Shown one piece after another: positions 9,640 to 57,362 of a DNA stretch of 64,000 nt (positions are counted from its first letter, which is position 1; each line of letters starts with the position of its first letter). Source of the DNA: Hormiphora californensis (lineage: Eukaryota > Animalia > Ctenophora); NCBI GenBank assembly GCA_020137815.1, contig CM035360.1:6200001-6264000 (forward strand). The letters are read 5' to 3'. The notes beneath the pieces are model-generated. The model did not search any database. It was not told the DNA's origin and was given only the letters and a program-made list of their open reading frames with translations. The position numbers and the translations under genes are program-made.

Positions 9640-12166
<2,527 letters not shown>

Positions 12167-13429: not shown

Positions 13430-28543
<15,114 letters not shown>

Positions 28544-29739
28544 AACACGAGTTATCATAATATCAGATCATTTTCCCATTAATATTATTTGATGTGATGA
28601 GAGGGACCTCATTATTATTGAGATATTGATTCTCATCTTTCTGAAACGTTTTATTTGACTTATCCGTTATAATCACTTGGTTCTCGATGATGATACTACT
28701 ACGAATTATGTTGACTGTATCGACAGTTTAGTAAACCTATAACTGAGTGAGAAACTGACATCAGCCTTTAATCAATTCCTCAGTAGTCTTGTTTTTATAA
28801 TAATTTTCTTTTCAATAAAGTAAATGGCAATGTGAATACAATATTGTGAGTAATGATATGAGATTAGAAAGAATAGAATGTGATTTCAGATCGAATAGAT
28901 ATGCTTTGAACTTTCTAAACTTTCAATTTTAACTTTATACCAGACAATTTGATGTAAAAAGTGCATGTGGAATTTGCAAATTGTTTTTGTTAACAAAGAA
29001 AGAACTCGTTTTATTTCGGTGGTAGCTCTCCACGTATATGGTGTGGTGAATGAATGTGGTCTCGGCAGTTATCATCAGATTATCTCAGAGAGGGGGGGAT
29101 CCCATGGTATACTTTGGTATACTTTGGCACTTTCCACAACTTTTTCAGCGATTTTCCATATACCAAAGTATACCAAAGTATACCAAAGTATACCAAGGTA
29201 TACCAAAGTATAATAATAATAATAATAATATCTAGACTTGTATCCTGCCCAGATCCCCCAGGGACAGCATAGCATAGCTAATACTGCCACTGAGGGATAA
29301 TCAGAGCAGTTTACTCACACACTCAACCAAAATTAGATTCAAAAACGGTGGTAAAAACCAAATAAACCTGCTCTCATGAGATGGAAGAAATACAATCGGA
29401 TTCATAACAGACATAAATGGTAAGAAGACAAAAAATATAGCTTCAAAAAATATCCTCTACAACCTTTACACCTCTCCAAAAAACTTTATCAGATCAAAAA
29501 AAGGTTCAGATAAATCTCTGAACCACCCTCAACACAGACATCGCCCAGGAAAAAGCGGAAACTGAACACTGAATAAAAATAGTATTACACACTCAGACAC
29601 TCGTGCTTCAAACCCAAAAAGATGTGCTAGAAAAACTTGTCACGAGGGACACACAGTACAAACACACGTCTTACCTGATAGACAGTACAGCGAGTGATAG
29701 GATAGCGATAGGGGAAATCCGGAAAGAGGAAAGACACAA

Positions 29740-32700
29740 CTAGTCAGCCCCAAAGGATTCCACGAACAGTCTTGTCTTGAGACGAGTCTTAAACGATTCC
29801 ACAGTGGTCAACGACCTCAGATCGAGGGGGAGGGCATTCCAAAGGTCCGGTAGGAGAACTGACGGTCTCCTCTTCCTCAGTTTAGAACTGGCATTCACAC
29901 TCGACAGTTTGGGGTACCGGAGCTTAAAGAGATCGGGCACTGTAGTCGCTCTGGTCCGGCGGGGTACATCCAGTACATTGTCCGCAGGTATTTGCTCACA
30001 GAGGTAGTCTGGAGCACTTCCATGTATGATCTTGTAGGCCATAAGACATGATTTGAAGACAACACGTTGCTCAATAGGGAGAATGTGAGTCTCTCTCAGG
30101 TAGGGCAGGTAATCATCTTGATGACCATGAAGTCCATAGATGAACCTAACACAGGAATTAAGCACCTTCTGAAGGCGGGCAATGAGCTTCTTTGGAAGAC
30201 CTCCATAAAGGATATTACAATAATCCAGACGGGAGATAACAAGCTGCTTCACCAAGAGAACTTTGGTGGAGAAGTCCAGACAACGATTGACCTGCCATAA
30301 ATTCTTTAACAGCATTCCACAATGTTTTCTCACACTGTTCACCTGACGCTCCAAAGTCAAGTTTTCATCCATGTAAATACCCAGAGTCTTGCCCGAAGTA
30401 CCCTTGAAGTCAATAGGACCGATATCCACATCTCCAAACCTAACCGACGGTTCAAAAGTAAGCTTATCGATAGCACTACTTTTACCCAGGATAAGAAGTT
30501 CCGTCTTCGACTCATTGCATTTCAACCAGTGCTCGACCATCCATGCCTTGAGGCGATCAAGACATTCCTCAACATTCCTCTTCGTTCCTTTCCATTGGTC
30601 TTCATCACAGGGAACCAGACTCACATAAATCTGTGAGTCATCTGCATATAGCTTAATTTTAAGCCCATATGCACGCACCAGATCCTGAAGTTCCTCCACA
30701 TAGAGAAGAAACAAGACTGGACCAAGGAGGGATCCTTGGGGTACCCCACATATCAAATAAATCATCCTTGATAGTTCTCCTCGCACGTTCACTCTGAAGT
30801 TCCTCGATCCAAGATAACTGATAAACCACTGAAGAGCTGCTCCTCTTACTCCAAACCTCCTACTCAGAACGTCCACAAGCTTAGAATGATCCACAGTGTC
30901 AAAGGCAGCCGACATATCCAAAAGAAGAAGGGCAACAACATTACCCTTGTCCATTTCCTGTAAAAGGTCATCAAACATTCCCATAAGTAGAGTCTCGCAA
31001 CTATGGCCTACCCTGTACCCCGACTGGTGAGGGTTCAGCAAGTCATTCTCCTGAAGGAACTCGTTGAGCTGGTCAAGTACCACCTTCTCAAGAACTTTTG
31101 AGATAAATGGTAGGTTCGATACCGGGCGATAGTTAGATAGGCTGTCCCTATCCCCATTAGGGTTCTTAATGGTGGGAAAAACAAAGGCTTGCTGAAACGT
31201 CTCTGGAACAACAGCTTTGCGAAGAGAGGAGTTAATAACTCTTGTAAACAGAGGAGCAAAAACTTCGATACACTCTTTAATCATCCACGTTGGTATCAGA
31301 TCGAGATCACACGTCTTATCCGCCATATCCTTCACTATCCTCTTAATCTCCTCACAAGAGACTTCCCTGAATTCCTCGAACGTACAATTCCTAACCGAGT
31401 CCTCAAGAGATTCCACATCATCATAAGCATGCTCCTCTGCAGTAACAGAATTTCTGATTTTCTCAACTTTTCCAGTAAAGAAGTCTGCAAAATCCTCAGC
31501 AAGTTTACGATCACATCCTGTTTCAGGTAGTACTACCTCACTTTTTCCCAGCAGTCGGTTGAGTTTCCTCTGTAGGCCATTGGAGTCCCCTTTAGATTCT
31601 TCGAGATCTGCTTTGACGTAGTTAATCCTTTGGATCCATCGCATCCTATTCTCGCTCCGCGAATAATAGGATCCCGGTCCGTTGAGAGCAAGAACTCACG
31701 TGCGCGCGATATAAAGCACGTTTTCAGCAGATCGCGCGTGATAGACCGTTTTTGGAGACCTTTTTAGCTGACCTAGCACTACTCAAAGGTCAATTATGGC
31801 CTCATTTCGCATCGTGGTGAATCGGCGGGTATTTTCCCATACTCACAAGGCCATGACGATTCCCCCAGTACCCGCAGATTGTCCCAGGACCGAGTAGGAG
31901 CTTGCAGCCAGGTCTTTAAAGAATTGCTCATGTTTAGCGTCAATTTTGACCCACTATTCCTCAAATGCTGATACTCGCGGGTATTTTCCGTAAAACTAGA
32001 GATAATTATCTGCCAGGAGCAACAAACGAGATGCAAATCGGTTCAGTAGTTCCTTGCAGCCAGGTCTTTGAAAAAGTTTGCTCTAAAATCAATAACGGAC
32101 CGGAGGCCTAGATGTGAGATCGATCTCGGTCGCTGCGCGACCTCGATCTCACTCAGGCATCAATGTGGCCAAGTTAATCCTCGCTTCCTTGTCAACTTTT
32201 CCAAACATCTTCTTCATCGCATTGTACTGCTTCTTCGTGATGGGGGTTTTATTACCCTCCCACGCCCTCTCAGCACACCGACGGAGTCTAAGTGCCTGTC
32301 TGACCTCCTCATTGTCTCTCCACGGGCGAAGCTTCTTAACTTTCTTTCTCCTCCTCAATGGGACAGTAGTATCCACTAATTCCTCTAGCTCTCGCTCATA
32401 GATCTCAAAGTTCTCTTCAGGGGAGTCCTCCAGCATACGATCCTCAAGATTCAGTCCTCTAACGGCTTTAGTAAACAAAACTGGGTCCACTGATTTGAAG
32501 TCTCTGTAGGTATTGACACGATTTCGGTCCTGCATGTTGCCATGCCTGGTTTCCAGGGAAACCTCACTCAAGACTAGGAAATGATCAGATTCAGTCCCAT
32601 CAGGGTAAATCTCCAAGGATTTGACTTTTTCCTCCACTTCCTTCGGGCAAACCACTAGATCAAGTGTACCTCCACGATTGTGGGTAGGCTGCCTAGGAAC

Positions 32701-33252
32701 AAGCTGAGAAAATTCCAGAGAGTCCAAGAGTTCAGCTAGCTTTCTGGTGTAGAAATTTTTCCCATCCTGCCACTGGAAATTAAAATCACCCATGATCAGA
32801 GGAAGACCTGTTTTTGACACCAGTTCAGAGAGATAATCCGCAAATTCATCCAGGAACTTCGCCTCAGTAAACCGAGCTTTACCCGTATAGGGGGGTCTGT
32901 AAATGTTACATAACCGAGTGAGATCGGCACCATCCCCAATTAAAACCTCCTGTATCTGAAAAGACCGAAAATTTCGAACAGGTGACAGCCTGACCTTCAC
33001 TCCATCCCGGTAGAGAATACCAATTCCTCCTCCCGCTCTCTCCGCTCTTGGTGATGAAAAGATATTCCAGCCATAATCTCGTATCTCCTGAAGTTTAGCT
33101 GTATCCGTATTCTTTAGGTATGTTTCCTGAATTAGACATATATCACATTTCTTATCCTCAAGATGTGTAATGACCCCAGACGTTTTGTTCTGAATGGAGT
33201 GTACATTTAATGTACCGATCCTCCACGTCTCTTTACTTTCAGATCTTCCCAC
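29740..33252 (-). pseudogene. LINE ORF2 (AP endonuclease + reverse transcriptase), split by one insertion
   Basis: APE motifs TLNV, IQET, GGGIG, NIYRPP, MGDFN, TLDLV, SDH in 32173-33252. RT motifs NYRPVSNL, QSGYR, LDMSAAFDTVDH, GVPQGSLLGP, YADD and an L2-type C-terminus (SRLDYCN, LWNALP, FKTRLKT) in 29740-31629. Removing the insert and one TSD copy joins ...DKEARIN|YVKADL... in frame (~986 codons). Confidence 0.93.
31630..32172. mobile_element. 543-bp non-autonomous insertion with 9-bp TSD, unclassified
   Basis: GTTAATCCT at 31621-31629 and 32173-32181. TTGG...CCAA termini. Subterminal inverted CCGGTCCGTT/AACGGACCGG. A hairpin at each end. Confidence 0.88.
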
Positions 33253-34511
33253 GCCCTCGTCAGATAGGAGTTTTTTCGCTCCTTTGTGACTCCACTTGTG
33301 TTCTCCATGAGTCGTCCTCTAGCATTCACATAATGCGGACACAAGTTGCTTGATGCTGGGTGAGATTTCGCATATCTCTTATCCTCTTTGCTACCTCCAA
33401 CATCACAGTTGACACACTTCATTCTACCAAGATCATTGTCCTTCTTCGCATTACACTGTCTGGTGTCATGGTCCCCTGAACAGAATGCACAGGTGGGACT
33501 CTTATCTTTGTTAGGACAGTAAACGGATCCTGCAACATGTCCATATCGCTGACAATGGAAGCATTGTGTCACATAGAATCTGTCCTTCACAATATGCTGT
33601 CGTAGTTTCAGGAAAATCCTGTCTCGGTTGTTGGCAATCATTGTCCGAATTTCGGGTGCAACCTTGATCACTGCATACTTCCCTGGGATATTGACGTGTA
33701 CAACATTGATCGCCTGCCCTGCCTGATGTAGCCTCTTAATTCCCTCATTTTTATCACTAAGGATGGCATCCGTCAGCGCATCCTTGTTCAATAGATCCTG
33801 GTCAAGATCAGAAATCATCAGTCGAGGGTCTCTCTTCTTCTGTTTCTCAACTACCGGAGTGACATCCAGAAAAGGTGATAGAGCCTTCTCTGCCTCCTTC
33901 AGATCATCATCAGTCTCAAAGAACAATTGAGTGTGCTTCCTATTCACGGAAGTATCAAGAACAGGAATGTTCTTCAACGCCTTCTCCACTTTCGATCTCA
34001 CCACAGTGGTCCATTTCTCCTCACACATAGGGGTCGCTCCTTCATCACTTGTGTCTTTGATATTTACATACCGTTTGACAGGGGTTGGTGGTGATGGTTT
34101 CTTAGCCAGGTGATCTATACTTCGACTGGTACCACTTCCATTCTCCTCTTGGCTAACTTTCAATATTTCACTCACTTTTGGGGCTACAAGTCCAGGGAGG
34201 CTATCAATCAGGTCTTGTTTCAGTTTCGAGAAACTGTCCTTCAGGTCATCACACGAGAACGAAACTCCAGACTCAGAAGATAGGGTTGCACACCGAGATG
34301 TGTCAGGAAGCATGTTGTAGCACATAACAATCATTCTCCATAGGTGTTCTCTGGTAGGTCCATCCGGCGGGGTCATTCTTCCCTCTTCCAGGCACTTCAC
34401 CACTGTACTGCCTTTACATCTGTCAGAGAAACTCGTGCCAAGTAACTCACCTTCATAATCTTTCTTCGTCCGTGTCATTCCATTTCCATACTGGGGTGCC
34501 ACACCCGACAT
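33207..34511 (-). CDS. LINE ORF1 (gag-like nucleic-acid-binding protein with Cys/His knuckles)
   Basis: Long open frame with first ATG at 34511. Knuckles CFHCQRYGH.....C, CAFCSGDHDTRQC and CVNC...H......C. Confidence 0.9.
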   Translation of the reverse strand: MSGVAPQYGNGMTRTKKDYEGELLGTSFSDRCKGSTVVKCLEEGRMTPPDGPTREHLWRMIVMCYNMLPDTSRCATLSSESGVSFSCDDLKDSFSKLKQDLIDSLPGLVAPKVSEILKVSQEENGSGTSRSIDHLAKKPSPPTPVKRYVNIKDTSDEGATPMCEEKWTTVVRSKVEKALKNIPVLDTSVNRKHTQLFFETDDDLKEAEKALSPFLDVTPVVEKQKKRDPRLMISDLDQDLLNKDALTDAILSDKNEGIKRLHQAGQAINVVHVNIPGKYAVIKVAPEIRTMIANNRDRIFLKLRQHIVKDRFYVTQCFHCQRYGHVAGSVYCPNKDKSPTCAFCSGDHDTRQCNAKKDNDLGRMKCVNCDVGGSKEDKRYAKSHPASSNLCPHYVNARGRLMENTSGVTKERKNSYLTRAWEDLKVKRRGGSVH

Positions 34512-34699
34512 TCTATCCTGTAACAGTGACGCGAGGGACCGCTCCACCAAGATTTGGCTTCCCGGATTTGACTCAACGAGGTCTCCTAAGGCTTGCTCAA
34601 TGTAGAGGGAGACAGGAACACCAGACTTGTCTTGTCTTTAGAAAAGAGATGGATTGAGCAGAGCTCTCAGAAGATTAACGAGGAGTAATTGAACGGAAC

Positions 34700-34742
34700 C
34701 TCAAATTAATTTGTTTAAAGTAGTGTTGAAAAGTTTGAAACT
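34700..34742 (-). other. Copy of the ctenophore spliced-leader (SL) exon
   Basis: Minus strand reads AGTTTCAAACTTTTCAACACTACTTTAAACAAATTAATTTGAG, matching the Pleurobrachia/Hormiphora SL as I recall it (GAGTTTCAAAC...AATTTGAG). Needs database confirmation. Confidence 0.85.
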
Positions 34743-36794
34743 TTAGGTATACCATAAAAATTTTGAAAAAGGTAAAATTTAAGCGATAAGTTAACATAAA
34801 TGACTAAATTTGTAAAACTACATCCTTATTTCTTTATAAGTTGGTAATATAACGCTTATTAAACCGATTTTTACGTTTTTGTTACATCATCCGGCTAGTG
34901 CTTCTAGGCTTGCCACTCGGGTTCGATTCCCGGTGAAGGCAATTTTTGAAAAATTTTTGGAGACTTTACCAAATACTATTTGAACATTTTCTTGACTTTT
35001 TAAAAGTTTTTTTATCATACTCAAATGGGTCCCAATTTGTCAAACCCCAGTTTTCTGACTCACCATTTTATAGGTAATATTTTCCCTCGATTCTATGAAT
35101 TTAGCCTATTTAGCACCATTGTCCAATTTTATGAGTCAAGAAAGTTTATATAAAATGTTTTAAAGCCTTAACTGTTGTAAATTAACACTTTAAAGTACTT
35201 TAAAGTTATTAAAAAGATATGGTATACTTTGGTATACTTTGGTACTTTCCACATATTTTTTTCCCTGCCCGGGTGAATGCCGAAGGCATTCACCCGGATG
35301 CCTTTTTACTTTGTAAAAAGGCATAGCAGGGTTAGAATTCGAAAACGACATTTTGGTATACTAACTAATCGGTAGAGGGACATTTTTTGGTCACACTTTA
35401 GTTGCGAGGGGCAACGGTGTAGCAACAAGAGCCGCGCACACAGTTACGAGCTGCTCCTTCATAAACCACTTCATTGGCACGTTTTCAGGAAATGTGTGGT
35501 GCGCAATGTGGCGGCGTGGCGCGCAATTTAGTGCTACTAAAACACAAGGATTTGCTCTATACTGTTTGTCTGATGTATAAATCATCGGGATTTTGTGTCC
35601 CGCTTGCTGCTACAGCGGATCTGGTCATGATTTACTTTCTTCATATATTCACATGGCAGGGAAATTCAGCATTATGTTAGAACATAATGCAATAATTCTT
35701 GTTTGGGATTTTCCATATACCAAAGTATACCAAAGTATACCAAAGTATGCCATGGGATCCCCCCCCCTCAGAGACAGATTTGTACGAGCTTGGTAACCGC
35801 TACCAGTACCATCAACCATGGTACGTTACCAGTGGTAACGTACCATGGTTGATGGCATTGCCAGTGGTAAATACCCACTGGCACTACCAGCTGAGATAGA
35901 GCTGAGTCCTTGTACTGTGCAGCGACATGGTAGTACCCGGTGTTTTGGTCATGATCAACATCACCAGTTCCCACTTGGTCCAGAATTAAAACCAAACCTC
36001 TTAAATTCATCCTTGTATTTTTTTGCACGCGCAAATCCATTTTTTGCGTAAACGCGCAGCGGCGCGCCGCGCGCGGGCGTGATCATAAATAAATATTTTC
36101 AAAATTTTTATGTTTTTTTGGAATTTCAGAAATTTCAAAAACGGGGAAATTTTCCGATTTTGAGAAGCGGAGTCTGCGGAAAACGCAATTTTTTTCGGGG
36201 AGTGGGGACCAGTTAGGTGTTCCACCTAACGACTTCGGTAGTGATTGCTACAACGGTCCCTCAACATCGTCTTAGAAAACAAGAAACAATGGCTTTGCAT
36301 TTTTCCCGTTGTCCTGATTTTGTTAATTGATTCCCTCCTCCCCCTTTCTGTCTTCCTTGGTATAATGGATTTTTGTCCCCCACCACTCACCAGCTGTAAT
36401 CCTACCACCATGTAATCCTACCATCATGACGATTTGTTTTTTCATAATGCCCAACATCCAATTTTTCTGACATTGTTTCCCCGTTATTCTCCCAAGATCT
36501 AGAACCTATCATTTCTCTGTTACTATTTCATCTATAATTTAGAGGCAACTTGGTTTGTGCTAAAAATGATCAAAATCACGAGCAGTCGTACATTTTTTTC
36601 ATTTCTGCCTTCTGGTTGTATTGGTGACGCAGTCACCCTTACAACTCGCGCGTGTAGCACGCGAAAACGAAGCCCGCCAAGCGGGCTGATGGCATCACCA
36701 ACTGGTTGTAATGGTGGGTTTCGAGTTTCTTGCAGGAGATCAATTTTCGATGCAATATGTTTATTATTTACTCGACATGATCTTCCTAACCTCT

Positions 36795-37576: not shown

Positions 37577-37956
37577 GCTCCAAAATTTTAATTTTGATTT
37601 TGGCGTCGGTGTGTGGTGACCCTAACGGAGCACCATGCCACCATTGTAATTTGTAATCAGATTTAGTAAACCAGTTGTTGTTCATCTTCTGTTCAGTGCG
37701 GACATCGGCCTTCAGACCTGCCCAAAATCTCAGCCAAACACAAAACGCGGCCCGGAAAAGTTACAAAAACAGAGCTGTTGCAGAGCTTTTTTGCGTGTGT
37801 GCCTGTTCGTTGCATGAACATTGAACATCAGGGCTGTTTTTACTTTTTGCCACAGTTTTGAGCAAAACTATCCAATATCCATTTTCTTATACATATATAA
37901 GTACAGCCTGAAATAATTTTTCCCAATAACAAATTGTATGTCAACAGGCAGTAGCG

Positions 37957-40900
37957 ATGTATAAACTCGACCTTCCCATTGATACCCGTGAGGCTAACGC
38001 CATAGCAGCCCGACAACAGCGGGAGGAACAGAGGAAGACTCAGATCTTCAATGCCAGGACACGGCTTATCGGTGTCGACACTGACTCCCTTGCCAAACAA
38101 ATCGAGGAGAAGAAATTGATGCAGCAGGCTGAGAGGGAGCGAGCCAATGCTTATGACAATGACATGATTAAAACAGCCCAGATTTGTACTCTACTTGACG
38201 AGAGGCAGAGTAATGATACTAGGAAACTAAACGGACAACTTAACAAATTCAGGTATGAAACACAAAAATCAAGATGATGCTTTAGTTTTCCTTTGATTAC
38301 AGCAAGAACTCGACTTGTTGACTAACCTCCAAATAAAATGTGAGATCTATCTTATCAGGGACTAGAGGTCTTTTTAGTAAGGGGTTAGGGGTTTACTTTA
38401 CTAGATCACTAATACCTCCTTATCTATTTTAGGCTGGAGCAGCAGGCAGCAGCCAGTAGACGAGAGTTTGATCTGTATGATCCTGAGAGTAAGAAGAAAG
38501 ATAAACCTGCTCGAGTTTCTGATGATGACCCTAGGTGTCAAGTATCCGGTCTCCAGCTTTTCCAGGGTTAGTTTTGAAAATTCTCCTCATTTTATCAGCT
38601 AACAAAAGGTCGACTACCACCCTCGCAGTGAAACACAGTGTTTTCGAAAGCTTCTGTCGATTCATTGATTTAGTACCACTGTATCGGTGTCGAGTAGTAT
38701 CAAGGCCAGTAGGTTGTGTAGTTAACAGATCAGTAGTTTATATAATACTGCCTAGAGATGTAACAACCAAACACCCACCCTCCCCAGGAGAGGACCTGTC
38801 AGCCAAAGATAGAAAGAAGTTGCAGCAGGAGCAAATGAGGGAATGGATCAAACAGCAGTTGGAGGAGAAGAACAGAGAGAAAGCAGCAGAGAGGTACGCT
38901 GAACAGCTTCACCAAAAGAAAATGATGGAGATTGATGCCCGATCTGCAGCTCTGGCCCGTGAGGAAGAGGAATGTAGGAGGAATCTTAACATGGCAACTA
39001 AAAACTACAATTCGGCACTGTCTGCTGAGAGGAAGGCCAGGGAAGCTTTGGATAAACAGAAGGAACAAGATGATAACTTCACAGAGCTGTCCAACCAGGT
39101 AGGACTTTCGAAACTTTTTGTTTTATTTCAGAATCAAAATTGTTGGCCTCTTATCTGGGCATCTGGCCTCTCCACTAAGCTAAGTTTCACTGAGTCTCTA
39201 GTTTCTAACTCCATAATTCTCTGTAAGGTATTCGGTGACACACTGACTGAGAACCCTGGTGTTGCCCAAAGCAGCTTTGGTGCTCATCGTGTCATCCCGG
39301 ACCGATGGAAGGGAATGAGCGCTGAACAGAAGGCTGAAATTCAGAGGACTCGAGACTTACAGGTAAGATTTGGACTCAATTAGAAACTGCCAAATGTCGG
39401 GTGTAAAGTAAGCCTGTCAAAACGTGTCGATTTTTGGCCAAACCTTGAAGTCACGAGAGGCAAGCCAATTCCGGTTGTACATCCTAGGTATAGGTCTCCT
39501 GAACATAAAAAACCAAAACGTCAGTCTCAATTATTTGGGGGAAGGTGTGTAATTAGCCCCTAATTGATTGGTAATTGAGCACAAGGGGGAAAAAGCTGTA
39601 TCTACCCTTAGGAAAGGAGTAGAGACAAAATTAAGGGCACCAAAGTGTTCAGCGTCCTCGCATTAGTGGGGGTAGGTGCCGGAATGAATTCTCTATCTCA
39701 TCTGGTTAATTAGATAATTGGATAATTAGGTATGCGCATAGCCGTTTGCTGGCCAAATGGCTATAGCCATGTTAGGAAAGGAGTAGAGACAAAACCGAGG
39801 GCACTAAAATGATCAGCGTCCTCGAATTAGTGGGGGTAGGTGCTGAAATTAAATCTCTATCTCATCCGGTTAATTAGATAATTGGATAATTAGTTTTGCG
39901 AATAACCGTTTTTAGGCTATATGGCTATAGCCACTTAGGAATGGTTTAGAGACTTTTCATTGGTGCCATTTTGTAGGCAATGGCCAAGTTATGGGGGGTC
40001 GACGTCGAACTTTTAAGCTCTATCTTCAACCGTTTAGCCGTTATTTGGCTTTTAAGGTGCTGAAAATGAGTAAAAATCGGGCTTTTTACCGTTTTTTGCT
40101 CATTTTGAGCACCTTTAAAGCCAAATAACGGCTAAACGGTTGAAGATAGAGCTTAAAAGTCCGACGTCGACCCCCCATAACTTGGCCATTGCCTACAAAA
40201 TGGCACCAATGAAAAGTCTCTAAACCATTCCTAAGTGGCTATAGCCATATAGCCTAAAAACGGTTATTCGCAAAACTAATTATCCAATTATCTAATTAAC
40301 CGGATGAGATAGAGATTTAATTTCAGCACCTACCCCCACTAATTCGAGGACGCTGATCATTTTAGAGCCCTCGGTTTTGTCTCTACTCCTTTCCTAACAT
40401 GGCTATAGCCATATGGCCAGCAAACGGCTATGCGCATACCTAATTATCCAATTATCTAATTAACCAGATGAGATAGAGACTTCATTCCGGCACCTACCCC
40501 CACTAATGCGAGGACGCTGAACACTTTGGTGCCCTTAATTTTGTCTCTACTCCTTTCCTAAGGGTAGATACAGCTTTTTTCCCCTTGTGCTCAATTACCA
40601 ATCAATTAGGGGCTAATTACACACCTTCCCCCAAATAATTGAGACTGACATTTTGGTTTTTTATGTTTAGGAGACCTATACCGAGGATGTACAACCGGAA
40701 TTGGCTTGCCTCTAGTGAGTTCTAGGTTGAAACACGTTTTGACAGGCTTAAAGTAATAATTTCCAATCGATCCTCAAATCAGAGTAGAGTTTGGAAGTGG
40801 GAATGCCTACTTAGCGTAGCGCGCGAGACAACACAGAGAGTATTTCTCGCGCGCGTTTTGCTATGATCCAGCGCGTAACCATGACAACTTTTACAGAAAG

Positions 40901-41160
40901 AAGAAAAACAGAGGATGCTAGATGAAGAGAAAGAGCTGTACAATGAATACGAGAGGACCGCCCTACTTCAGGCCCAGAAAGCCATTCTGATGGAGAGGGA
41001 GAAGAACAGGAAAGCAGCTGAGCTGGAAAAGAGCATTGCGGAGGAGAACATGAGGTTGTCTCAGGAACAGAGATCAAACCTGACCCGGCTGAACAAGGAA
41101 ATTTACACCAACCCTCCCACCAACGATTACTTTGCCCAATTCAACACCTCCACTCGATAG
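37957..41160 (+). CDS. RIBC2: RIB43A-like coiled-coil ciliary microtubule inner protein
   Basis: Exons 37957-38252, 38433-38566, 38788-39098, 39228-39362, 40897-41160. Motifs IFNARTRLIGVD, RREFDLYDP, DDDPR...GLQLFQGEDL, LTENP..A.S.FG.HRVIPDRWKGMS, YTNPPTNDYFAQFNTSTR*. RIBC1 versus RIBC2 orthology is not resolved. Confidence 0.93.
39409..40750. mobile_element. Near-perfect 1.34-kb palindromic (foldback) element in last RIB43A intron
   Basis: TAAGCCTGTCAAAACGTGT ... ACACGTTTTGACAGGCTTA with centre at ~40085. Flanking repeat TAAAGTA(A) overlaps the termini, so TSD length (3-9 bp) is ambiguous. Arms contain ~170-bp internal subrepeats. Confidence 0.88.
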
Positions 41161-42438
41161 AAGGAGAGCGTGTCATTCAAAGGGAGAGAGACTTTAGGCA
41201 GTTGCCAGAGAGATAGAGAACATTATGTCAACCAATATGTGTGTGTACAAAGCTGGATTTTTATGTGCGTCACCGGATGTGTAGCTAAACCAAGATGCAA
41301 TAATATTTGAACAAAATGAAAAACTGCCTTTTGAAATTTGTAACACATGAAACTGTACAAAATTAACATCTGCATTTGTCGCAAAGAAAGAATGGCAATA
41401 CGAGTTTCGGAATTAAAATATATCAAGGCTTAAATAGTCAAATAAGTCTTTCAAATAAGGCTTGTGGTACACATGACAGTCACACACGTCACACACAAAG
41501 TGCTGTCATCGTGGGACGTTTCTGAAATAAACACTGTCTTTCATCTCTGGTCTTGTTATGTTCTAACCCTCGTGAAAAGAGGGTCGAGCTAGGCAACTCT
41601 AGGAAACTGGTAGAATTGGTAGATTTAAAGTTTTTAAAACACTCATTGTCATTACTGCAGGGGTGTGTATAAGAAGGGATACAGCATAGTCTCTAGAGCT
41701 ATCATAAGATCCAGTCTCTAAGCCTTGATCCTTTGATCTGCTCTTCTGCCCCCTTGGTAGCCTGGCTTGGGACTTTTTCAATCCTAGCTTTGAGATAATT
41801 CCTGAAAAGTGAGAGAAATTAATTCATCGGAAAGAGACGCTACACATTTTGCAAAAAGATGTTGTCATACCACACTAGTCTTTGACAGGAGTTAGTTTGA
41901 TCCTTGGTAATGGTCTTCGTTCCTTCTCCCTGTATAATTGTGCTCTACTTGTCGAAGGTCTGTCGGTCACTTTGTCTGTCGCTTTGTCTGTCGCTTTATC
42001 TGTCGCTTTGTCGGTCGCTTTGTCTGATTTTCTCTTCTCTCGTGATCTGTCCCTTGACTTCTTTTTCTTTGATTTCGCAGGTTTTTCTGCCTCTCTTTCA
42101 GCAACAATGGGCGACATTGGCATGAAACCATCCATTCCCCGCATTGACATAGCCAGGCCTGATTTTCTGGGAATTTGGGTACGATTGAAATGAGCTGAAT
42201 CGATCAGCATAAAATCAATCAAAGTTGCAATTTAAAGGAACAATGAACATACATTTAAAATTCTATTTTAAAGGAACATACATTGAGGCTCCTGCTGCCT
42301 CCGGGGGAAGTAGCATCTGAAGATGCGGAGACGCTTCTTCCCCTACTCATTTCTTGTAGATTCTTCAACGAAGCTATAGCTTTACTGCTCACAGCCAGTA
42401 GAGCCCCTCTCTTTCTCGCTTTCTCTGCCTCTTTTTTC

Positions 42439-45400
42439 TTAGAGAATAAACTCTGCCATTTCAATATCTTGTTTCCTTATCATTTCATTCAGTCGGTCCT
42501 TGTCAAATATCCAGTGCTGTAGGTCAGCTGTCAATTGTTATAGTGGGTCAGTTTGTTAGTCAGTTTGTCACACAATACTATTGGTTGTCATGGAAACACT
42601 AATTCACATGTCACAGTATGTACCCTACCTGGTGCGTTTCTAAGTATTGAATCGTGATGTTTCCTGGTAGCCTGGTATGGCCTGCTTGCCTTCCAATACT
42701 TTTCCAAATAGTTGTTAAGGTGCTGGGCTGCTTCATTGAAATCGTGCTCGTTTAGTATCACATCAAAATGACGCTGTAAAGAAACAAGAGTCAGGGTTGG
42801 ACCCTGGAAAGCATCTCACCACGGCCCTTTTAATTGGAAGTACAATGTACTAATTTAGTACATGCTCAGTATCCCATCTTGTCCCCCCATTGTGTGCTAC
42901 CCCCCCCCCCCCCCTCGGACCTCGATGGCAATATTACCTTGTCCAAATCACACAGTTTGGTAGCGGTGTAAACTTGTGCTGTCATTCCTCTCTTCTGATC
43001 CGTTCCTCTCTGTTTAATGAGGTTCTGAAGCACCTAAAATGGGAATAGAAAATGGGTTAGAAATAGGGCGGAATGGCATTAGAAATGGCTATTAGAAGGT
43101 GGCGTACGCTGGACGGTGTGAGAGTAGGGCGAGGTTATACTCCTTCCTGGACTGCAATTGTATGGCGCTGTTTAATCATCGCTCAATTACAGAGTGAGAA
43201 AAGAAGGAGAAAGATGCTAGTGTTTGTGCAATTACCAAGGCAATTAACGACAATCACACACACATACTGATACACACACACTGCAGTGACATAATAATGT
43301 CAGTCGGTAGCACACAATATTCACACCCGGAACCAAGACCGGAAACACGCGAAAAACAAACAAGCAAGCAAACAAACAAGCAAACACGCAAACAAACAAA
43401 CAAACAAACAAACAAACAAACAAACAAACAAACAAACAAACAAACAAACAAGCAAACAAACAAACAAACAAACCTTAGTGTTTGATATTTTGATGTGAAC
43501 CAGGATTGGATTCAGAGCACTGCTTTTCAATGGAGTGGGGCTGTTGATTTTGAGATCTACAAACAGTAGTTTGAAACTCCGGGCTGCTTCATAGATCCTA
43601 TCTGTGATCACATCCAGACCCTCATGGAGCACCAGATCCTGATTTGTTGGCAGAGATGGAGGAATTGAAGGTTTTCAGAGATTTTTCATCCACCTATACG
43701 GGGAGAGGAGGTATTAGGAGATATTACATGATGCTAAGAATGGGATGTAATGAGATGCCCGTTAGAGAATTCAATACAGGATCGGACCCCGATTTACCGG
43801 GATACTACCCTTTTCCCGAACAGCTCGGTAGATCAGGGTCCTACAGCCTACTACTACAAGATGATGATATGAAACTTTACCTGGTAGACTTCTAGTTTCT
43901 CCTCAAACTGTTTCTTGATGGCGTGAAGGAGGGCTTTGTGCATCAAATCAGTGATCTCGAACCCCCTCATACTAGGTCCACAGAGAACAATGGGTCGTAT
44001 CACTGGCACCGCTTCATAAGGACCCTGTGCCTTACTATCCAGCTCACTCACTCTACTCTGAGGTATGGCCTCCACACATAAACTATCCATACTGTCTGAC
44101 TTCTTGACCTCTGCAGTTTTAGCTGGTGGAGCAGCGCTCTTCTTCTCTTCTTTCACTGGTTGTTTCCTGACGATGGTATCTCGTTGTTGACTGGCTATCT
44201 CCTCAGCAAGTTTCTTTATCTTAGCGGGGGCGGGTATAAACCCGATCGGGGAATCTACCTTTACCACCCTTCCTATCCACCAATCCTCGTTATATTTCGC
44301 CTTCACATGGAGACAATCACGTGCTCTGAATGTCACCGCCTTCCCGTGTATTGGACAGTCATCGTCGTGAAACCCGTTAAAAGTGAGGTTCACTCGCACA
44401 GCAAAGGCGACATCCATTCTCTCAGCGTTGGAAACTATTTCCCAGGCCTCCTTTAGACCGTATTGAATTGAGGGTTGGAGTTCTCCATTCCACTGTTCCT
44501 GAAGGGGAGGGGGTGATAGAAGGGGGAGGGGGTGATAGAAGGGGGAGGTAGGGGGGGGGGGGTGAAAATTTAGTTGAGGGCTAGGGGAGATTTATAGCTG
44601 TTTTGTTCAAACCCATTTTATTTTATGGTGGGCGGAGAGGGTCGAATCATTATAGTAGTTGGCACATGTGCTAAAACTAGGGCATATTGTGTAAATGTGC
44701 TTACATTAATTTCTCTCCGTAATCTCTGAACTCCATCATCCACAGGGGTCTTACCAAGGGACTCGGGGTGGTAAAGTAACTGATTTAGAATCTGAGAGGG
44801 AGGGAGATATGTTTAGACTACTTAAATGGAAGTTGGAAATGATTTAGTCTTTATCCAAAGAAAGTAAGACCGGGTATAATTTAGAGTAGGTAGTACATGT
44901 ACAACTCTAAAAGTACCGTGTGGGGCAATAAAAATGCCCCCCCCAAGTCTACCATAGTTCTAGATATCGTGGAGCGCTAAAATTTGGTACAGTAACTCTA
45001 TGAGACAAATAAATAACTTGACCAAAATTTCAGACCTCTAGCTCAAAATTCATTTTTTTGATCGGAATGAACATTGCCATTCATTCCAGAAAAAATATTT
45101 TACGGTCTAAAATTTAACCAATTATGTTTGGCTATCGATTAGCTTTCCAATGTGACCAAGATCAGCTAAATTGGACAACCACAAGAGACACAGTGCCATG
45201 TTTCTTAAAGTTAGTCAGGTCATGTGATCCTCACCGAATCATGGAGAGATTCGGTATTGCTAATCAGGCCAAGGGGCAGAGGAATCTCGTATCACGGCCG
45301 CTAATGAGGTATGTGTACCAATACTGGGTGATGTGATTCGAGAAAAGAGGACATTTATCTGAAGAGCTACAGCATCGTCATCCCTCATTAGCAGCCGTGA

Positions 45401-50693: not shown

Positions 50694-52241
50694 CTAGGCC
50701 AAAGGAGACTCAGAGTTCTCATTTCTCGTTTTAGCATAACACTCCACATCTTTTGGTGTCTCGGGGATTCGCCGTCCGGTCGTATCAGGCTGAAACCATA
50801 CTGCAAGGCCACAGAGCGCCGTCAGGACCGCAAAAACAACCAAGGGAACTCTCCTGTCTGCCACGTTGTACATGAGACTCATGTAGGGACCAATAAAAGA
50901 TCCGATCCTGGCAGAACTTGAGCTCAGGGAAAGGACCATTCCACGATGGGAGGTCGGTGCTAACTCTCCTGTAAACAGATAGAACACAGCAAACACAGCA
51001 GTTACACCCATACTCCCAATTAGACAAGACACATTCTCCAACGTCCATCTTCCCCCAAACTTAACATCAGGCATCGCAAGGAAGTAGGATGCGAAGGAGA
51101 TGGAGAGAAAGAAGAATGCGCCCTTTCTAGCACCCAGCCACTGACACACTGGGAAGGTAGAACTGTATGATATGAATTTCCCGATAGCAGCCAGTAGATA
51201 ACTGATATACAGGTCATCACTAATCTTGCCCCAACCAAATGAGAACCCGTAGAAGAGAATGGCAATGATGAACCATGACGCCATAGATCGGAGGGTTTCC
51301 TTGGTAAGAGTTGGGAAGTTCCTGAAATCTTGGATCTGACTAAGGAACCCCTGGACTCTTTTCTGGTATACGATCTCTACTTGGTCAAGGTTGATGGGGT
51401 TTCCAGCTGCCCGTGAGAAACTGGTCAGCACCCTCTTCGCCTCCTCTTCCTTGCCCTGGACCAGGAGGAACCGGGGAGACTTTGGGAGGAAAATGAGGGG
51501 AATGGCGGTGACGACATTTAGAATTGCAGCTGCCAGGAAGATCAACCTCCACTCCTTGATCACATAGGAACAGCACACAATGGCAATATACCCGCAACTC
51601 CACAAGACCTGAGTTCCCGCACTGGCTGGGTTCCTGAGGTGGGATGGTGCAAACTCTACCGCCCAGCAATAGACCCCTGTAAAGGTGATAAACTGTCCGA
51701 AACCCTGAACAATCCTTAGCAACAACAGGGTGGTGTATCCAGAGACAACTAGACCAGACAGTGACCCCACTGTTCCTATTGCAGTTCCAATCAGTGCCCC
51801 GTACTTCCTGCCGACCCTATCAAAAATAGCAGTGGAACAGAGAAGACCAAGGCATGCTCCGATGAAGAAGAACGAGTTGATGATCGGTAGCTTGTACTCA
51901 TTATCACAGTATAGACCCCAATCCAAAGCGTAGGAGGACCTTTCACTCTTCCACACAAAATCCACTTCCACCTCCAGCTCGTGATGACCACAGAGGACAT
52001 CTCGGTTGTAAATAGTGGCATTACCCACCGCCACCGCGCACCTGTGGGACACACACCGCCACTCGTTGTACGGGACATGCCCTGCGAAGATGGTCACGAA
52101 GATCTTGGCAGGGGTATTCATGGAGGGAATGGCGGCCAGGAACAGGAGACAGAGGACCCAGTTGGGACGATCCGGTACTATCTTATCAACAATCTCGTCA
52201 ACTGTTAGTCGCTGCTTTATTTCCTCTGGTTTAGGACTCAT
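50694..52241 (-). CDS. SLC22-like organic ion transporter (MFS), intronless, copy A, 515 aa
   Basis: Cys-containing loop after TM1 (DWGLYC), DRVGRK MFS motif, VEFAP..R, PKSPRFLL..G, ELAPTSHR, PDT.G..IPET. Confidence 0.92.
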   Translation of the reverse strand: MSPKPEEIKQRLTVDEIVDKIVPDRPNWVLCLLFLAAIPSMNTPAKIFVTIFAGHVPYNEWRCVSHRCAVAVGNATIYNRDVLCGHHELEVEVDFVWKSERSSYALDWGLYCDNEYKLPIINSFFFIGACLGLLCSTAIFDRVGRKYGALIGTAIGTVGSLSGLVVSGYTTLLLLRIVQGFGQFITFTGVYCWAVEFAPSHLRNPASAGTQVLWSCGYIAIVCCSYVIKEWRLIFLAAAILNVVTAIPLIFLPKSPRFLLVQGKEEEAKRVLTSFSRAAGNPINLDQVEIVYQKRVQGFLSQIQDFRNFPTLTKETLRSMASWFIIAILFYGFSFGWGKISDDLYISYLLAAIGKFISYSSTFPVCQWLGARKGAFFFLSISFASYFLAMPDVKFGGRWTLENVSCLIGSMGVTAVFAVFYLFTGELAPTSHRGMVLSLSSSSARIGSFIGPYMSLMYNVADRRVPLVVFAVLTALCGLAVWFQPDTTGRRIPETPKDVECYAKTRNENSESPLA

Positions 52242-53014
52242 GGTTTCTTTTTTTTTCTTCTAAAAGTCAGGGTGAAATTAGCAATTGTTTCTTAGGTGAA
52301 AATAACAATTATCATTCAGTTCAAGGAATTTAACATGTCCTGGCCAGTGACTACTACTACTACAGTTTATTGATAAGATAAAAGCGAAAGGGCGGCATAT
52401 TTTAAAGCAATGACAGTCTCTCTGTTCCTGCTCCTGCAGAAGAGACAAGGTTGTAACATAACGCGGTAAATGACAACACTCATTTCACCCAGACATCCAC
52501 ACTCTTCACGATCATTACCTTCACGAAGTGCAACCATATATGGGCATCACGTAGCACACAACACCATATATGGGCATCCCCACTCTCTCTTTCACGATCA
52601 TTACCTTCACACGATAGGAGAATTTCATCTTTTGGACTTTTTAATGTGATTCAGAATAAAATTAACTACCAATTCCCCATAGTATGCATGTCGATATTGG
52701 ACTCATTGATCAAATGATAAGGAGAAGTTTTAACAACCTTTATTAAATCTGAATTACTAAAGATCCATTGTTATTACCTGATCGCTGAACTGATCATCGT
52801 ATAGATCTCTCTCCACTAAGTAGACTGTCGTCGTCCAATAATTATCTCTCCATTGATCGATAAATTCCCTTGTCATTGGTACCTGCAGGAAATGAAGGAG
52901 GGAGTTTAAGGAAAAGTGAAAATATATTACTTTGGAACCAAATCAAAGGATTTCACATTTTCATATTCATTTTCATATTCATACTAATTCATGTTTCATT
53001 CATTTCAGTAAAAA

Positions 53015-54562
53015 CTAGGCCAAAGGAGACTCAGAGTTCTCATTTCTCGTTTTAGCATAACACTCCACATCTTTTGGTGTCTCGGGAATTCGCCGTCCGG
53101 TCGTATCAGGCTGGAACCACACTGCAAGGCCACAGAGCGCCGTCAGGACCGCAAAAACAACCAAGGGAACTCTCCTGTCCGCCACGTTGTACATGAGACT
53201 CATGTAGGGACCAATGAATGATCCGATCCTGGCAGAACTTGAGCTCAGGGAAAGGACCATTCCACGATGGGAGGTGGGTGCTAGCTCTCCTGTAAATAGA
53301 TAGAACACAGCAAACACAGCAGTTACACCCATACTCCCAATTAGACAAGACACATTCTCCAGCGTCCACCTTCCCCCAAACTTAACATCAGGCATCGCAA
53401 GGAAGTAGGACGCAAAGGAGATGGAGAGAAAGAAGAATGCGCCCCTTCTAGCACCCAGCCACTGACACACTGGGAAGGTAGAGCTGTAGGATATGAACTT
53501 CCCGATAGCAGCCAGTAGATAACTGATATACAGGTCATCACTAATCTTGCCCCAACCAAATGAGAACCCGTAGAAGAGAATGGCAATGATGAACCATGAC
53601 GCCATAGATCGGAGGGTTTCCTTGGTGAGGGCGGGGAAGTTCCTGAAATCTTGAATCTGACTAAGGAACCCCTGGACTCTTTTCTGGTATACGATCTCTA
53701 CTTGGTCAAGGTTGATGGGGTTTCCAGCTGCCCGTGAGAAACTGGTCAGCACCCTCTTAGCCTCCTCTTCCTTGCCCTGGACCAGGAGGAACCGGGGAGA
53801 CTTTGGGAGGAAAATGAGGGGAATGGCGGTGACGACATTTAGAATTGCAGCTGCCAGGAAGATCAACCTCCACTCCTTGATCACGTAGGAACAACACACA
53901 ATGGCAATATACCCGCAACTCCACAGAACCTGAGTTCCCGCACTGGCTGGGTTCCTGAGGTGGGATGGTGCAAACTCTACCGCCCAGCAATAGACCCCTG
54001 TAAAGGTGATAAACTGTCCGAAACCCTGAACAATTCTCAGCAACAACAGGGTGGTGTATCCAGAGACAACTAGTCCCGACAGTGACCCCACTGTTCCTAT
54101 TGCAGTTCCAATGAGTGCCCCGTACTTCCTGCCGACCCTATCAAAAATAGCAGTGGAACAGAGAAGACCAAGGCAAGCTCCGATGAAGAAGAACGAGTTG
54201 ATGATAGGTAGCTTGTACTCATCATCACAGTATAGACCCCAATCCAAAGCGTAGGAGGACCTCTCACTCTTCCACACAAAATCCACTTCCACCTCCAGCT
54301 CGTGATGGCCACATAGGACATCCCGGTTGTAAATAGTGGCATTACCCACCGCCACTGCGCACCTGTGGGACACACACCGCCACTCGTTGTACGGGACATG
54401 CCCAGCGAAGATGGTCACGAAGATCTTGGCAGGCGTATTCATGGAGGGGATGGCGGCTAGGAACAGTAGACAGAGAACCCAGTTGGGACGATCCGGAACT
54501 ATCTTATCAACAATCTCATCAACTGTTAGCCGCTGCTTTATATCCTCTGAGTTTAGAGTCAT
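53015..54562 (-). CDS. SLC22-like organic ion transporter (MFS), intronless, copy B, 515 aa
   Basis: Nearly identical protein to copy A. Differences are at the N-terminus and a few scattered residues. Confidence 0.92.
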   Translation of the reverse strand: MTLNSEDIKQRLTVDEIVDKIVPDRPNWVLCLLFLAAIPSMNTPAKIFVTIFAGHVPYNEWRCVSHRCAVAVGNATIYNRDVLCGHHELEVEVDFVWKSERSSYALDWGLYCDDEYKLPIINSFFFIGACLGLLCSTAIFDRVGRKYGALIGTAIGTVGSLSGLVVSGYTTLLLLRIVQGFGQFITFTGVYCWAVEFAPSHLRNPASAGTQVLWSCGYIAIVCCSYVIKEWRLIFLAAAILNVVTAIPLIFLPKSPRFLLVQGKEEEAKRVLTSFSRAAGNPINLDQVEIVYQKRVQGFLSQIQDFRNFPALTKETLRSMASWFIIAILFYGFSFGWGKISDDLYISYLLAAIGKFISYSSTFPVCQWLGARRGAFFFLSISFASYFLAMPDVKFGGRWTLENVSCLIGSMGVTAVFAVFYLFTGELAPTSHRGMVLSLSSSSARIGSFIGPYMSLMYNVADRRVPLVVFAVLTALCGLAVWFQPDTTGRRIPETPKDVECYAKTRNENSESPLA

Positions 54563-56525: not shown

Positions 56526-56913
56526 ATAAGGAACCATAATAAAGTTCAAGAGCCTCCAAGAGCACCCAAGAGCGCACCCGATCGAAGAGAGACCACACCT
56601 GAGAGCGCACCACATCCAAAAGAGACCACATCCAAGAGCGCACCACCTCCAGAAGACACCACTTTAAGAGCGCACCACATCAAAGAGAGCTCCCCATCCA
56701 GAAGATACCACGCGCAGGGGACACCACGCGCAGAAGAGACCAGCGCGGCGTTGTATTTGCGCGTGCGGTCTCTTCTGCGCGTGGTGTCCCCTGCGCGCGG
56801 TATCTTCTGGATGGGGAGCTCTCTTTGATGTGGTGCGCTCTTGGAGTGGTGTCTTTTGGAGGTGGTACGCTCTTGGATGGGGTGCGCTCCTGAACTTTAT
56901 TATGGTTCCTTAT
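56526..56913. mobile_element. Palindromic MITE with internal AAGAGCGCACCAC-type subrepeats
   Basis: ATAAGGAACCATAATAAAGTTCA ... TGAACTTTATTATGGTTCCTTAT with mirrored interior centred at ~56750. Confidence 0.82.
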
Positions 56914-57362
56914 TATACCATGCTTGCCCCGTGCAGCTCCTGAGTCCTGATGGGTCCTGCACTAAGGCTCATTGAATTTGTTGTTTTTAGCAAAAATGTG
57001 ATTACAGCTCAGGAAAAGTTCATTTCGGCATTTCCAATTCCCATATATCTTGTTTTGCGGTCCCTTTATTATATAATACCTCCCCACACGAGAATTGAGG
57101 TAGTTTAGTGTAGAATAAATGAGGACTCCTAGAAAACCGTACACAATTGATACACTCCTGCACTCCATCGTTATAATAGGGAGCCCCCCCCCCCCTTTTG
57201 ATATCAATTATCAAGAGGTTTACATTTTGCACAATTTTTGCACCTGCATTCTGCAATGCCGTGTAATTGTTTGTGCAACATCTAATTCCTTGCAGCTTCA
57301 TTGCTATTTGCTCTTCCTCTCTCTACACCCACAGTTTACCTTTCAATCTCTTAGCAGATATA

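Follow-up and report, generated by a model that had tools for sequence, protein, structure and literature searches.

The window analysed here, a stretch of 64,000 nucleotides from contig CM035360.1 of the ctenophore Hormiphora californensis, contains a 5.5 kb LINE with an APE-type endonuclease, which is read from the minus strand and is nested in an unrelated TIR element. Its first open reading frame, ORF1 (33207..34511, minus strand), begins at the ATG at 34511 and encodes 434 amino acids with C-terminal Cys/His knuckle motifs, which alignment showed to be conserved across relatives. The protein shares 55% identity with one from Pleurobrachia bachei and has no Pfam match, a zf-CCHC match being obtained only for one distant relative. 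Near the end of ORF1 lies a slippery heptamer, A-AAA-AAC (33270..33276, minus strand), from which onward the -1 frame is open as ORF2; an A-AAA-AAY heptamer with an open -1 frame is present in 18/18 elements compared, and ORF2 is predicted to be reached via a -1 frameshift. ORF2 (29740..33318, minus strand) encodes an N-terminal APE endonuclease (PF03372, E=1.9e-11; PF14529, E=8.5e-09), as an earlier note on this DNA had proposed, followed by a reverse transcriptase (PF00078, E=5.8e-29) whose top PDB matches are LINE-1 ORF2. The element may be of the L2 type, to judge from the resemblance of its reverse transcriptase and C-terminal motifs. The same note had called it a full-length LINE; it is full-length, but a 543-bp secondary insertion (31630..32172) breaks ORF2, so that the window copy is not intact. 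The insertion is flanked by a 9-bp direct repeat, has weak terminal inverted repeats and is probably a non-autonomous DNA transposon. With it removed, ORF2 has 972 open codons. At one related locus, L001, ORF2 also carries the APE domain and is uninterrupted, and both ORFs are open. The LINE ends in an (ATT)n tail (29213..29231, minus strand), which is identical in L001 next to another flank, and this simple-repeat tail, a short target-site duplication and the lack of LTRs in the window copy are as expected of an APE-type LINE.

The 5′ end of the LINE is a 43-nt copy of the spliced-leader (SL) exon (34700..34742, minus strand). The earlier note had taken it for the SL exon of a cydippid ctenophore, and it is identical at 43/43 positions to nt 2-44 of the published H. 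californensis leader (PMC8527503). A 32-nt part of it has this single match in the window at three or fewer mismatches, and shuffles matched in 0/100 cases. Four bases further upstream, beyond CTAA (34743..34746, minus strand), the sequence of the host element resumes, within a few bases of the leader as had been stated; the empty site without CTAA was found in three contigs of run X1, which confirms the break point, and the CTAA was likely added during integration. The target-site duplication, TATAC (3-5 bp, overlapping the tail at one end), has its 5′ copy at 34747..34751 and its 3′ copy at 29208..29212 after the (ATT)n tail (both minus strand), and brackets the SL and the LINE together, in agreement with the view that the SL belongs to the element as its 5′ end. 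Between the SL and ORF1 lies a 188-nt 5′ UTR (34512..34699, minus strand), with a family motif resembling G-A/T-Y-Y-C-C at its start and a YAG 6 nt upstream of the ATG at its end. As noted earlier, this UTR contains neither an ATG nor an Sm site, the latter by three patterns tried, of which one loose match lies at +240, within ORF1. The terminal AG of the SL copy is the putative trans-splice acceptor.

Rather than an SL RNA gene, the insertion target is a non-autonomous TIR element of ~1.1 kb with a 7-bp flanking repeat, TCTCTGA, now split by the LINE so that its ends lie at 29092 and 35767; it is highly repeated and is covered in all four runs compared (X1, X5, X9 and X13). A search of Rfam, which may lack a ctenophore model, gave no match to an SL RNA family, and within the TIR element it gave sub-threshold miRNA-like hairpins only. 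The exon matches the host mRNA leader, and the conserved GT donor and Sm-site intron of an SL RNA gene are absent. An unrelated target had indeed been claimed before, and the genomic flanks differ between related loci, that of L001 being unlike the window's.

Seventeen of 28 related loci fetched were informative, which with the window makes 18 elements. Among the 11 uninformative loci, six (L004, L013, L017, L022, L025 and L027) lie on contigs that begin within ORF1 or immediately ahead of it, and the contig of L002 begins 109 nt upstream of the ATG, with the leader not seen; three (L014, L020 and L026) are apparently 5′-truncated into unrelated DNA and L028 is a false hit. All 17 informative loci, L015 being scored from 6 nt only, have a leader ending in TTGAG 98-210 nt upstream of ORF1, and each of the 18 junctions coincides exactly with the terminal AG of the leader and a homologous LINE +1 motif. 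A leader-like rule, composed after the loci had been inspected, fits 16/18 elements versus 1/1916 background ATGs. A G immediately follows the leader in 14/18 elements, AG|G being the usual acceptor context; in most animals GAG makes a poor acceptor, and a better-looking acceptor, a YAG 1-16 nt upstream of the ATG, is found in 18/18, with no copy seen, among these elements or the contigs listed, in which the SL is joined there. A second leader upstream was not found in any element (best match at least 8 mismatches in 20), upstream flank of >60 nt being available in eight, and none of these eight shows a 5′ transduction with a second leader. The first AG of the SL was also considered as the acceptor; no tandem of SL and SL(3-43) occurs among the contigs listed or upstream of the elements. 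The possibility of a UTR intron with the SL as exon 1 was rejected, GT not being conserved. The SL pattern had no matches in viral contigs, where the ORF1 alignment gave 65 pattern matches, none of which was confirmed.

The junction was also followed in the contigs of runs X1 and X5 and of a second organism, B (X9 and X13); the DNA nature of these runs is a guess, X1 is possibly the window's own sample, and the run tables hold 166 loose ends and 2660 pieces besides the contigs listed. Among the latter, several subfamilies in the two organisms join the SL at one and the same base. In X1, three contigs make up the whole depth at position 34675 (436.2+451.7+579.5=1467.4) and all three enter the SL, the window subfamily being an unbranched single contig of 716 nt that spans the junction. 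Contigs listed for X5, X9 and X13, which account for part of the junction depth, have the identical junction at divergences of up to about 15%, and the sequence 3′ of the SL is LINE UTR in the listed contigs of all runs. These contigs and the 17 loci show the SL recurring at a fixed junction at the level of the family, the outcome of 5′-end alignment that the earlier note had said would support a family-level mechanism. None of the three results that the note had named as refuting its idea occurred: the 43-mer matches the SL of the species, the relatives carry the leader, and neither a copy with an outron nor an SL RNA intron was seen. Three RNA or RNA-like runs gave small word shares (0.06-0.10), with no evidence of LINE expression.

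Comparison of the leaders with the elements that carry them suggests that the two are decoupled in age. The SL is exact in L001, and the window shares exact SL suffixes of 41, 40, 42 and 28 nt with L003, L005, L006 and L007, respectively, elements with which its ORF1 is 45-50% and its fourfold sites 26-36% identical, and whose UTRs are unalignable with its own (53-58% versus 51-52% in shuffles). Lineages with saturated synonymous sites have kept 28-42 nt of the SL letter for letter. Similarly, L019 and L023 share 97% of the leader at 47% identity in ORF1 and 20% at fourfold sites. The opposite contrast is seen in L009 and L012, whose leaders differ at 9/30 positions and whose adjacent UTRs differ at 3/60 (Fisher p=0.002), the same comparison not being significant for L009/L011 (p=0.18) or L011/L012 (p=0.26). 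The pair L012/L018 was rejected as independent evidence, because its leader is shared through UTR recombination. Leader type tracks the ORF1 tree at its deepest split (6 Hormiphora-type versus 12 others, these being putative SLs), a pattern that descent would explain as well as host tracking.

Since exact or similar leaders occur in distant relatives, it is likely that a fresh host leader is spliced on in each copying cycle. In the reading that we favour, with a probability of roughly 0.68, SL-bearing copies are transcribed and trans-spliced again at the terminal AG of the SL copy, which would regenerate the 5′ end. Transcription would begin at the SL copy, inside it or a short way upstream, an internal UTR promoter and read-through being equally likely sources; the AT-rich SL copy would then serve as outron, and splicing would attach a new host SL to the LINE +1. 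The RNA would resemble an ordinary host mRNA and be translated as such, with ORF2 made by use of the frameshift motif, and target-primed reverse transcription to or near the cap would insert the SL and LINE together with a short duplication, the product observed in the window. A new copy made in this way carries SL-AG directly before +1, and therefore the junction would stay fixed while the leader follows the current SL of the host, and therefore would not age with the element. The earlier note had anticipated this point, in that the AG of the SL would re-create an acceptor at a constant junction, and the pattern among the relatives fits repeated re-splicing. In dinoflagellates, an AG inside a retrocopied SL is reported to serve as acceptor (PMC12014239, PMC5585692).

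A bolder form of this proposal is possible, though we would not bet on it: an ancient ctenophore LINE clade may have given up its own promoter and use SL DNA as a self-renewing acceptor, by which the host spliceosome excises the element from passing transcripts and caps it like a host mRNA, so that the clade would supply much of the 718 leader copies of Hormiphora and record the SL of each host. That the element lacks a promoter of its own, as the earlier note supposed, is mildly disfavoured, because its UTR is conserved and swapped as in promoter-bearing LINEs and no 5′ transduction with a second leader was seen in the eight elements with enough upstream flank.

The strongest rival, which we consider unlikely, is a single capture of the SL followed by inheritance. 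Transcription would then start at SL +1, driven by a promoter inside the element (within the SL or the UTR), no further trans-splicing would take place, and selection or occasional conversion would hold the leader host-like. Internal promoters are normal in LINEs, UTR conservation within a clade is strong (96-97% in L009/L011/L012 versus 69-75% at fourfold sites), UTRs have been swapped between lineages, and leader type matches the deepest split of the tree; moreover, SL relics have been proposed as promoters in dinoflagellates (PMC5585692). A single capture would, however, require 40-42 nt to have remained identical to the present host SL while synonymous sites were saturated, and it does not sit well with leaders that differ more than the UTRs beside them in L009 and L012. 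It is less probable still that masters with a promoter and an outron exist and that all SL-bearing copies are their dead-end processed progeny. This would be the ordinary fate of a retrocopied trans-spliced mRNA, and sampling is partial, 11/28 loci being uninformative and the contigs of X1-X13 seen only as listed; nevertheless, an outron is present in 0/18 readable junctions, no junction branch appears among the listed contigs of X1, both ORFs are open in SL-bearing copies like L001, and a lineage that lost its promoter at each jump could hardly have yielded many old lineages.

U6-L1 chimeras arise by template switching, and a switch of the reverse transcriptase from the 5′ end of the LINE RNA to SL RNA or an SL-bearing mRNA could add or refresh the leader without splicing. 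Homology-driven switching inside the SL could renew its 5′ part, and two of the contigs listed contain rearranged tandem SL pieces, yet switching should give variable junctions and 18/18 are exact at the terminal AG and the homologous +1 motif, which leaves this explanation improbable. More improbable again is that the element imitates an SL RNA donor, as the earlier note had suggested from the GT that follows the SL in the window, or lies in an SL RNA gene: donor mimicry was rejected because the leader is followed by GT in just 5/18 elements (TG in 4 and GA in 9), the UTR lacking an Sm site and Rfam an SL family match, and a gene location is at odds with LINE UTR after the SL in all runs and with flanks that differ among copies. 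That the SL is an assembly artefact or comes from RNA-derived contigs, being absent from genomic DNA, is scarcely credible, for all that the DNA status of the runs is a guess, given the target-site duplication around SL and LINE in the window, the >60 nt of flanking sequence that precede the leader in eight elements and the coverage of the host repeat in four runs.

Several known systems resemble parts of this arrangement. CRE, SLACS and CZAR of trypanosomatids and NeSL of nematodes are non-LTR elements that likewise occur in physical association with SL sequence. Their endonuclease is restriction-like and their insertion targets are SL RNA genes, whereas the Hormiphora LINE encodes an APE domain at the N-terminus of ORF2, has the SL as part of its own sequence and lies in unrelated target sites. 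With LINEs of the L2/CR1 group (Jockey superfamily) it shares ORF1 Cys/His knuckles, an APE-RT ORF2, an L2-like C-terminal region, a simple-repeat tail and a short duplication, a likeness in motifs that suggests a putative kinship, and differs in its SL 5′ end and the conserved -1 slippery site between the ORFs. R2, and the L1Tc/ingi elements with their 5′ HDV-like ribozymes, set the 5′ end by RNA processing inside a longer transcript, as is proposed here, except that they rely on ribozyme self-cleavage and the host spliceosome would act on the Hormiphora LINE and also supply a capped leader. Slamovits and Keeling reportedly described SL-relic retrogenes of dinoflagellates in 2008. These are retrocopied with the SL, transcribed again and re-spliced at an AG in the old SL (PMC12014239, PMC5585692), much as in our proposal, and an SL at the 5′ end of the retrocopy is likewise found in the window and at 17 loci; the dinoflagellate cases involve host-gene cargo, an internal AG and tandem relics, whereas the Hormiphora LINE is autonomous and has no tandem relic, and its terminal AG would restore an identical end. 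In parasitic flatworms, SL sequence adjoins LINE or LTR elements at 597 genomic loci, and integration of trans-spliced retrotransposon RNA has been suggested (Calvelo et al. 2025, PMC12582326; Boroni et al. 2018, PMC5832876), so SL-tagged retrotransposon copies have already been proposed in print; in the accessible portions of these papers they appear as partial leaders in a passing remark on discarded loci and are not tied to a family, a constant junction, tracking of the host or a life cycle. Transposable element RNAs are also trans-splicing substrates in Hydra, where about 30% of the Iso-Seq reads from such elements carry an SL (PMC12220107), and in Heterodera (PMC6362198), the accessible text of both reports staying at the RNA level, with no SL-defined genomic 5′ end. 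A clade-wide animal case of retrotransposons that start with an SL was not found in the literature searched, in which the accessible text of PMC7986045 and PMC8629364 offered nothing pertinent.

How a LINE obtains a complete, capped 5′ end at each new site is a basic problem, to which internal promoters and self-cleaving ribozymes are the known answers. If the favoured reading of repeated re-splicing is true, host trans-splicing that writes the 5′ end of a whole clade would be a third answer, in an animal lineage. Dispersed leader copies, 718 in Hormiphora and 491 in Mnemiopsis, have been reported without explanation, in the accessible part of the source (PMC8527503), and SL-bearing LINEs are a testable source of these hundreds of ctenophore copies, which also mislead gene annotation. 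Re-splicing lends itself to a direct test on copies whose SL carries private mutations, and the SLs of unsequenced ctenophores would become readable from DNA alone. Part of the leader at locus L021 returned 0 papers in a full-text literature search; this leader appears similar to the SL of Mnemiopsis.

At 34742-34700 on the minus strand, the window carries a 43-nt AT-rich stretch ending in TTTGAG, which the earlier note took for a ctenophore spliced leader (SL); it is identical to nucleotides 2-44 of the Hormiphora californensis leader printed in the excerpts of PMC8527503, and that identification was right. A 32-nt part of the motif, with up to three mismatches allowed, occurs only once in the window and in 0 of 100 shuffles. 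According to the same excerpts, 56% of Iso-Seq reads in this species bear the leader, and the genomes of Hormiphora and Mnemiopsis contain 718 and 491 leader copies, which the excerpts do not connect with LINEs.

The SL is followed directly by a 188-nt 5' UTR (minus strand) with neither an ATG nor an Sm site, then by ORF1 (34511-33207, minus; 434 aa), which is 55% identical to a relative annotated in Pleurobrachia bachei, and 3' of this by ORF2 with APE and RT domains (minus), the element ending at about 29213 in an (ATT)n tail. Together with the SL, the Pleurobrachia bachei relative would place the window in a pleurobrachiid ctenophore. ORF2 is broken by a 543-bp insertion at 31630-32172 with a 9-bp duplication, presumably a non-autonomous Mutator-like element, and is open over 972 codons once this is left out; L001, a related locus, lacks the interruption. 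As the earlier note had claimed, the LINE's target is not an SL gene; it is a repeat within a 1.1-kb TIR element (29092-35767, with a 7-bp flanking repeat). TATAC stands at both LINE ends, with four additional bases ahead of the first SL base, and the empty site is present in three contigs of sequencing run X1. An Rfam search matched no SL RNA family.

The SL at the LINE 5' end is real and family-wide, recurring at the same junction in contigs of four public runs and in all 17 informative related loci. Contigs were placed on 33900-35100 from X1 and X5, which are organism A runs of two studies, and from X9 and X13 (organism B), figures being taken from the contigs listed; the window may itself come from the X1 sample, and the runs are presumed to be DNA, as indicated by coverage of the host repeat and by contigs running on upstream of the SL into unrelated sequence. 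The whole X1 depth at 34675 (1467.4) is made up of three contigs (436.2, 451.7 and 579.5), which stop inside the SL at 34718, 34721 and 34718; the 436.2-depth contig (716 nt) has no branch across the SL-LINE junction, and the other two represent diverged subfamilies. Among the contigs listed for the remaining runs, three of X5 extend to 34718-34732 (3553 of 6625, a fourth being unlisted), one of X9 extends to 34716 (1018 of 2800) and two of X13, one of which differs by 43 substitutions and 13 gaps over 335 nt, cross the junction (955 of 2349). In several contigs the match covers the SL and the next 2-8 nt of LINE before breaking off, and in two (X1, X13) an incomplete SL at 34700-34745 runs into the start of another SL; other LINE subfamilies or genuine SL RNA genes may account for these patterns.

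Alignment of ORF1 fetched 28 loci from metagenome contigs, 17 spanning the 5' junction (L015 on 6 nt of leader only) and 11 uninformative. An AT-rich leader ending in TTGAG lies 98-210 nt upstream of the ORF1 ATG in 17/17. With the window counted, the UTR is free of ATG in 16 of 18 elements, and a leader-like rule, devised after the loci had been inspected, picks out 16 of the 18 versus one among the window's 1916 remaining ATGs. L001, L003, L005, L006 and L007 have the Hormiphora-type SL; the other 12 leaders are related to it, yet different, with an (A)GTTT start in several of the longer ones and about eight distinct variants among L008, L009, L010, L011, L012, L016, L018, L019, L021, L023 and L024 (first 60 nt ahead of the junction), that of L021 presumably resembling the Mnemiopsis SL. 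We take these 12 to be candidate SLs of other ctenophores, which fits the common TGAG end noted in excerpts of PMC8527503.

The junction falls precisely at the SL splice point in 18/18 elements, the hallmark of an RNA that was trans-spliced and then reverse-transcribed up to the cap or close to it; L003, L005 and L006 have lost 1-3 nt from the 5' end of the SL. The alternative proposal that the element mimics an SL donor is rejected, GT following the leader in only 5 of 18 elements (TG in 4, GA in 9). Trans-splicing would remove the outron, and a promoter lying upstream of the outron would not travel with the RNA; the lineage would therefore persist only through active SL-bearing copies or outron-bearing masters; no such masters were seen, and SL-bearing copies with open ORFs exist. 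If the leader is renewed, the acceptor would be the AG formed by the final two SL bases, as no other AG stands directly before +1. The earlier note's main model, of which the SL as the LINE's own family-wide 5' end with its junction at the splice point has stood, is that the LINE RNA would be re-spliced at the terminal AG of the SL DNA copy, thereby renewing the leader; we give it a probability of about 0.68. Two points weaken it: GAG is not a common splice acceptor, and a YAG 1-16 nt upstream of the ORF1 ATG in 18/18 elements (window: 34518-34523, minus), often behind a CCTCAA motif, looks like a conserved and better acceptor, yet the run contigs listed include none in which the SL is joined to it. 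The YAG may serve an RNA that is only translated.

Sequence comparison suggests that the leader does not age with the element. Against the window, L003, L005, L006 and L007 show 45-50% ORF1 identity, 26-36% identity at fourfold sites (saturated) and 53-58% in the UTR (shuffled 51-52%, maximum 59-61%), and have exact SL suffixes of 41, 40, 42 and 28 nt in common with it; in ORF2, L003 and L006 share 62-63% identity with L001. The leaders of L019 and L023 are 97% alike although ORF1 is 47% and fourfold sites 20% identical, and L009 and L012 differ at 9/30 leader positions versus 3/60 in the adjacent UTR (p=0.002). Against decoupling, the same contrast lacks significance for L009/L011 (p=0.18) and for L011/L012 (p=0.26), and in the 18-row ORF1 tree all six Hormiphora-type elements group as a single clade (100/100), so leader type tracks the deepest ORF1 split. 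Two loci show 5' UTR exchange between lineages: L018:1-300 joins an L012-type UTR to an L010-type ORF1, and L015:1-300 joins its own UTR to an L009-type ORF1. Since L018 is a recombinant, its leader identity with L012 is not independent evidence.

That UTRs are conserved and exchanged, and that no second leader lies upstream in the 8 elements with long flanks, makes us lean towards a local transcription start over long read-through; an element without a promoter of its own is therefore doubtful. At the end of ORF1, 18/18 elements have the slippery heptamer A-AAA-AAY (window: 33270-33276, minus) together with an ORF2 that reads open in the -1 frame, and the window ORF2 frame has no ATG ahead of the APE domain, which suggests a predicted programmed -1 frameshift yielding an ORF1-ORF2 fusion; the term 'frameshift' is absent from a review of non-LTR ORF2 translation (PMC3894237).

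CRE, SLACS and NeSL differ from this LINE in endonuclease and target. The feature joins two known kinds, the APE-type LINE and the SL-tagged retrocopy. In the excerpts of each source, Calvelo et al. set aside 597 loci with partial leaders in the vicinity of LTR and LINE elements, suggesting that trans-spliced retrotransposon RNA had integrated (PMC12582326); Boroni et al. noted six SL-containing elements (PMC5832876); about 30% of TE reads in Hydra carry an SL (PMC12220107); in Heterodera, a CR1 repeat overlaps with SL-spliced genes (PMC6362198); and for dinoflagellate retrogenes re-splicing at an AG within the old SL is described and a promoter role of the SL relic is proposed (PMC12014239, PMC5585692, PMC3942190). 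The literature covered, mostly outside subscription papers and Repbase, yielded no LINE clade with an SL as its fixed 5' end, and none in ctenophores; the comparative evidence for continual SL renewal, here in an animal lineage, is stronger than any found in print.

Elsewhere in the window, near-perfect long inverted repeats at 21981-23323 (663-nt arms), 39441-40728 (640) and 9804-11481 (315) are probably foldback elements. A RIB43A gene (PF05914) lies at 37930-41160 (plus). Some 7 kb upstream of the LINE and on the same strand as it, 41875-44417 (minus) holds what we take to be a calcium-channel beta subunit-like gene, and about 20500-28300 (plus) a presumably villin-like one, both by likeness and without a supporting Pfam match. 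Three related single-ORF transporter-like genes (515-544 aa), two tandem and one inverted, occupy 50694-58997.
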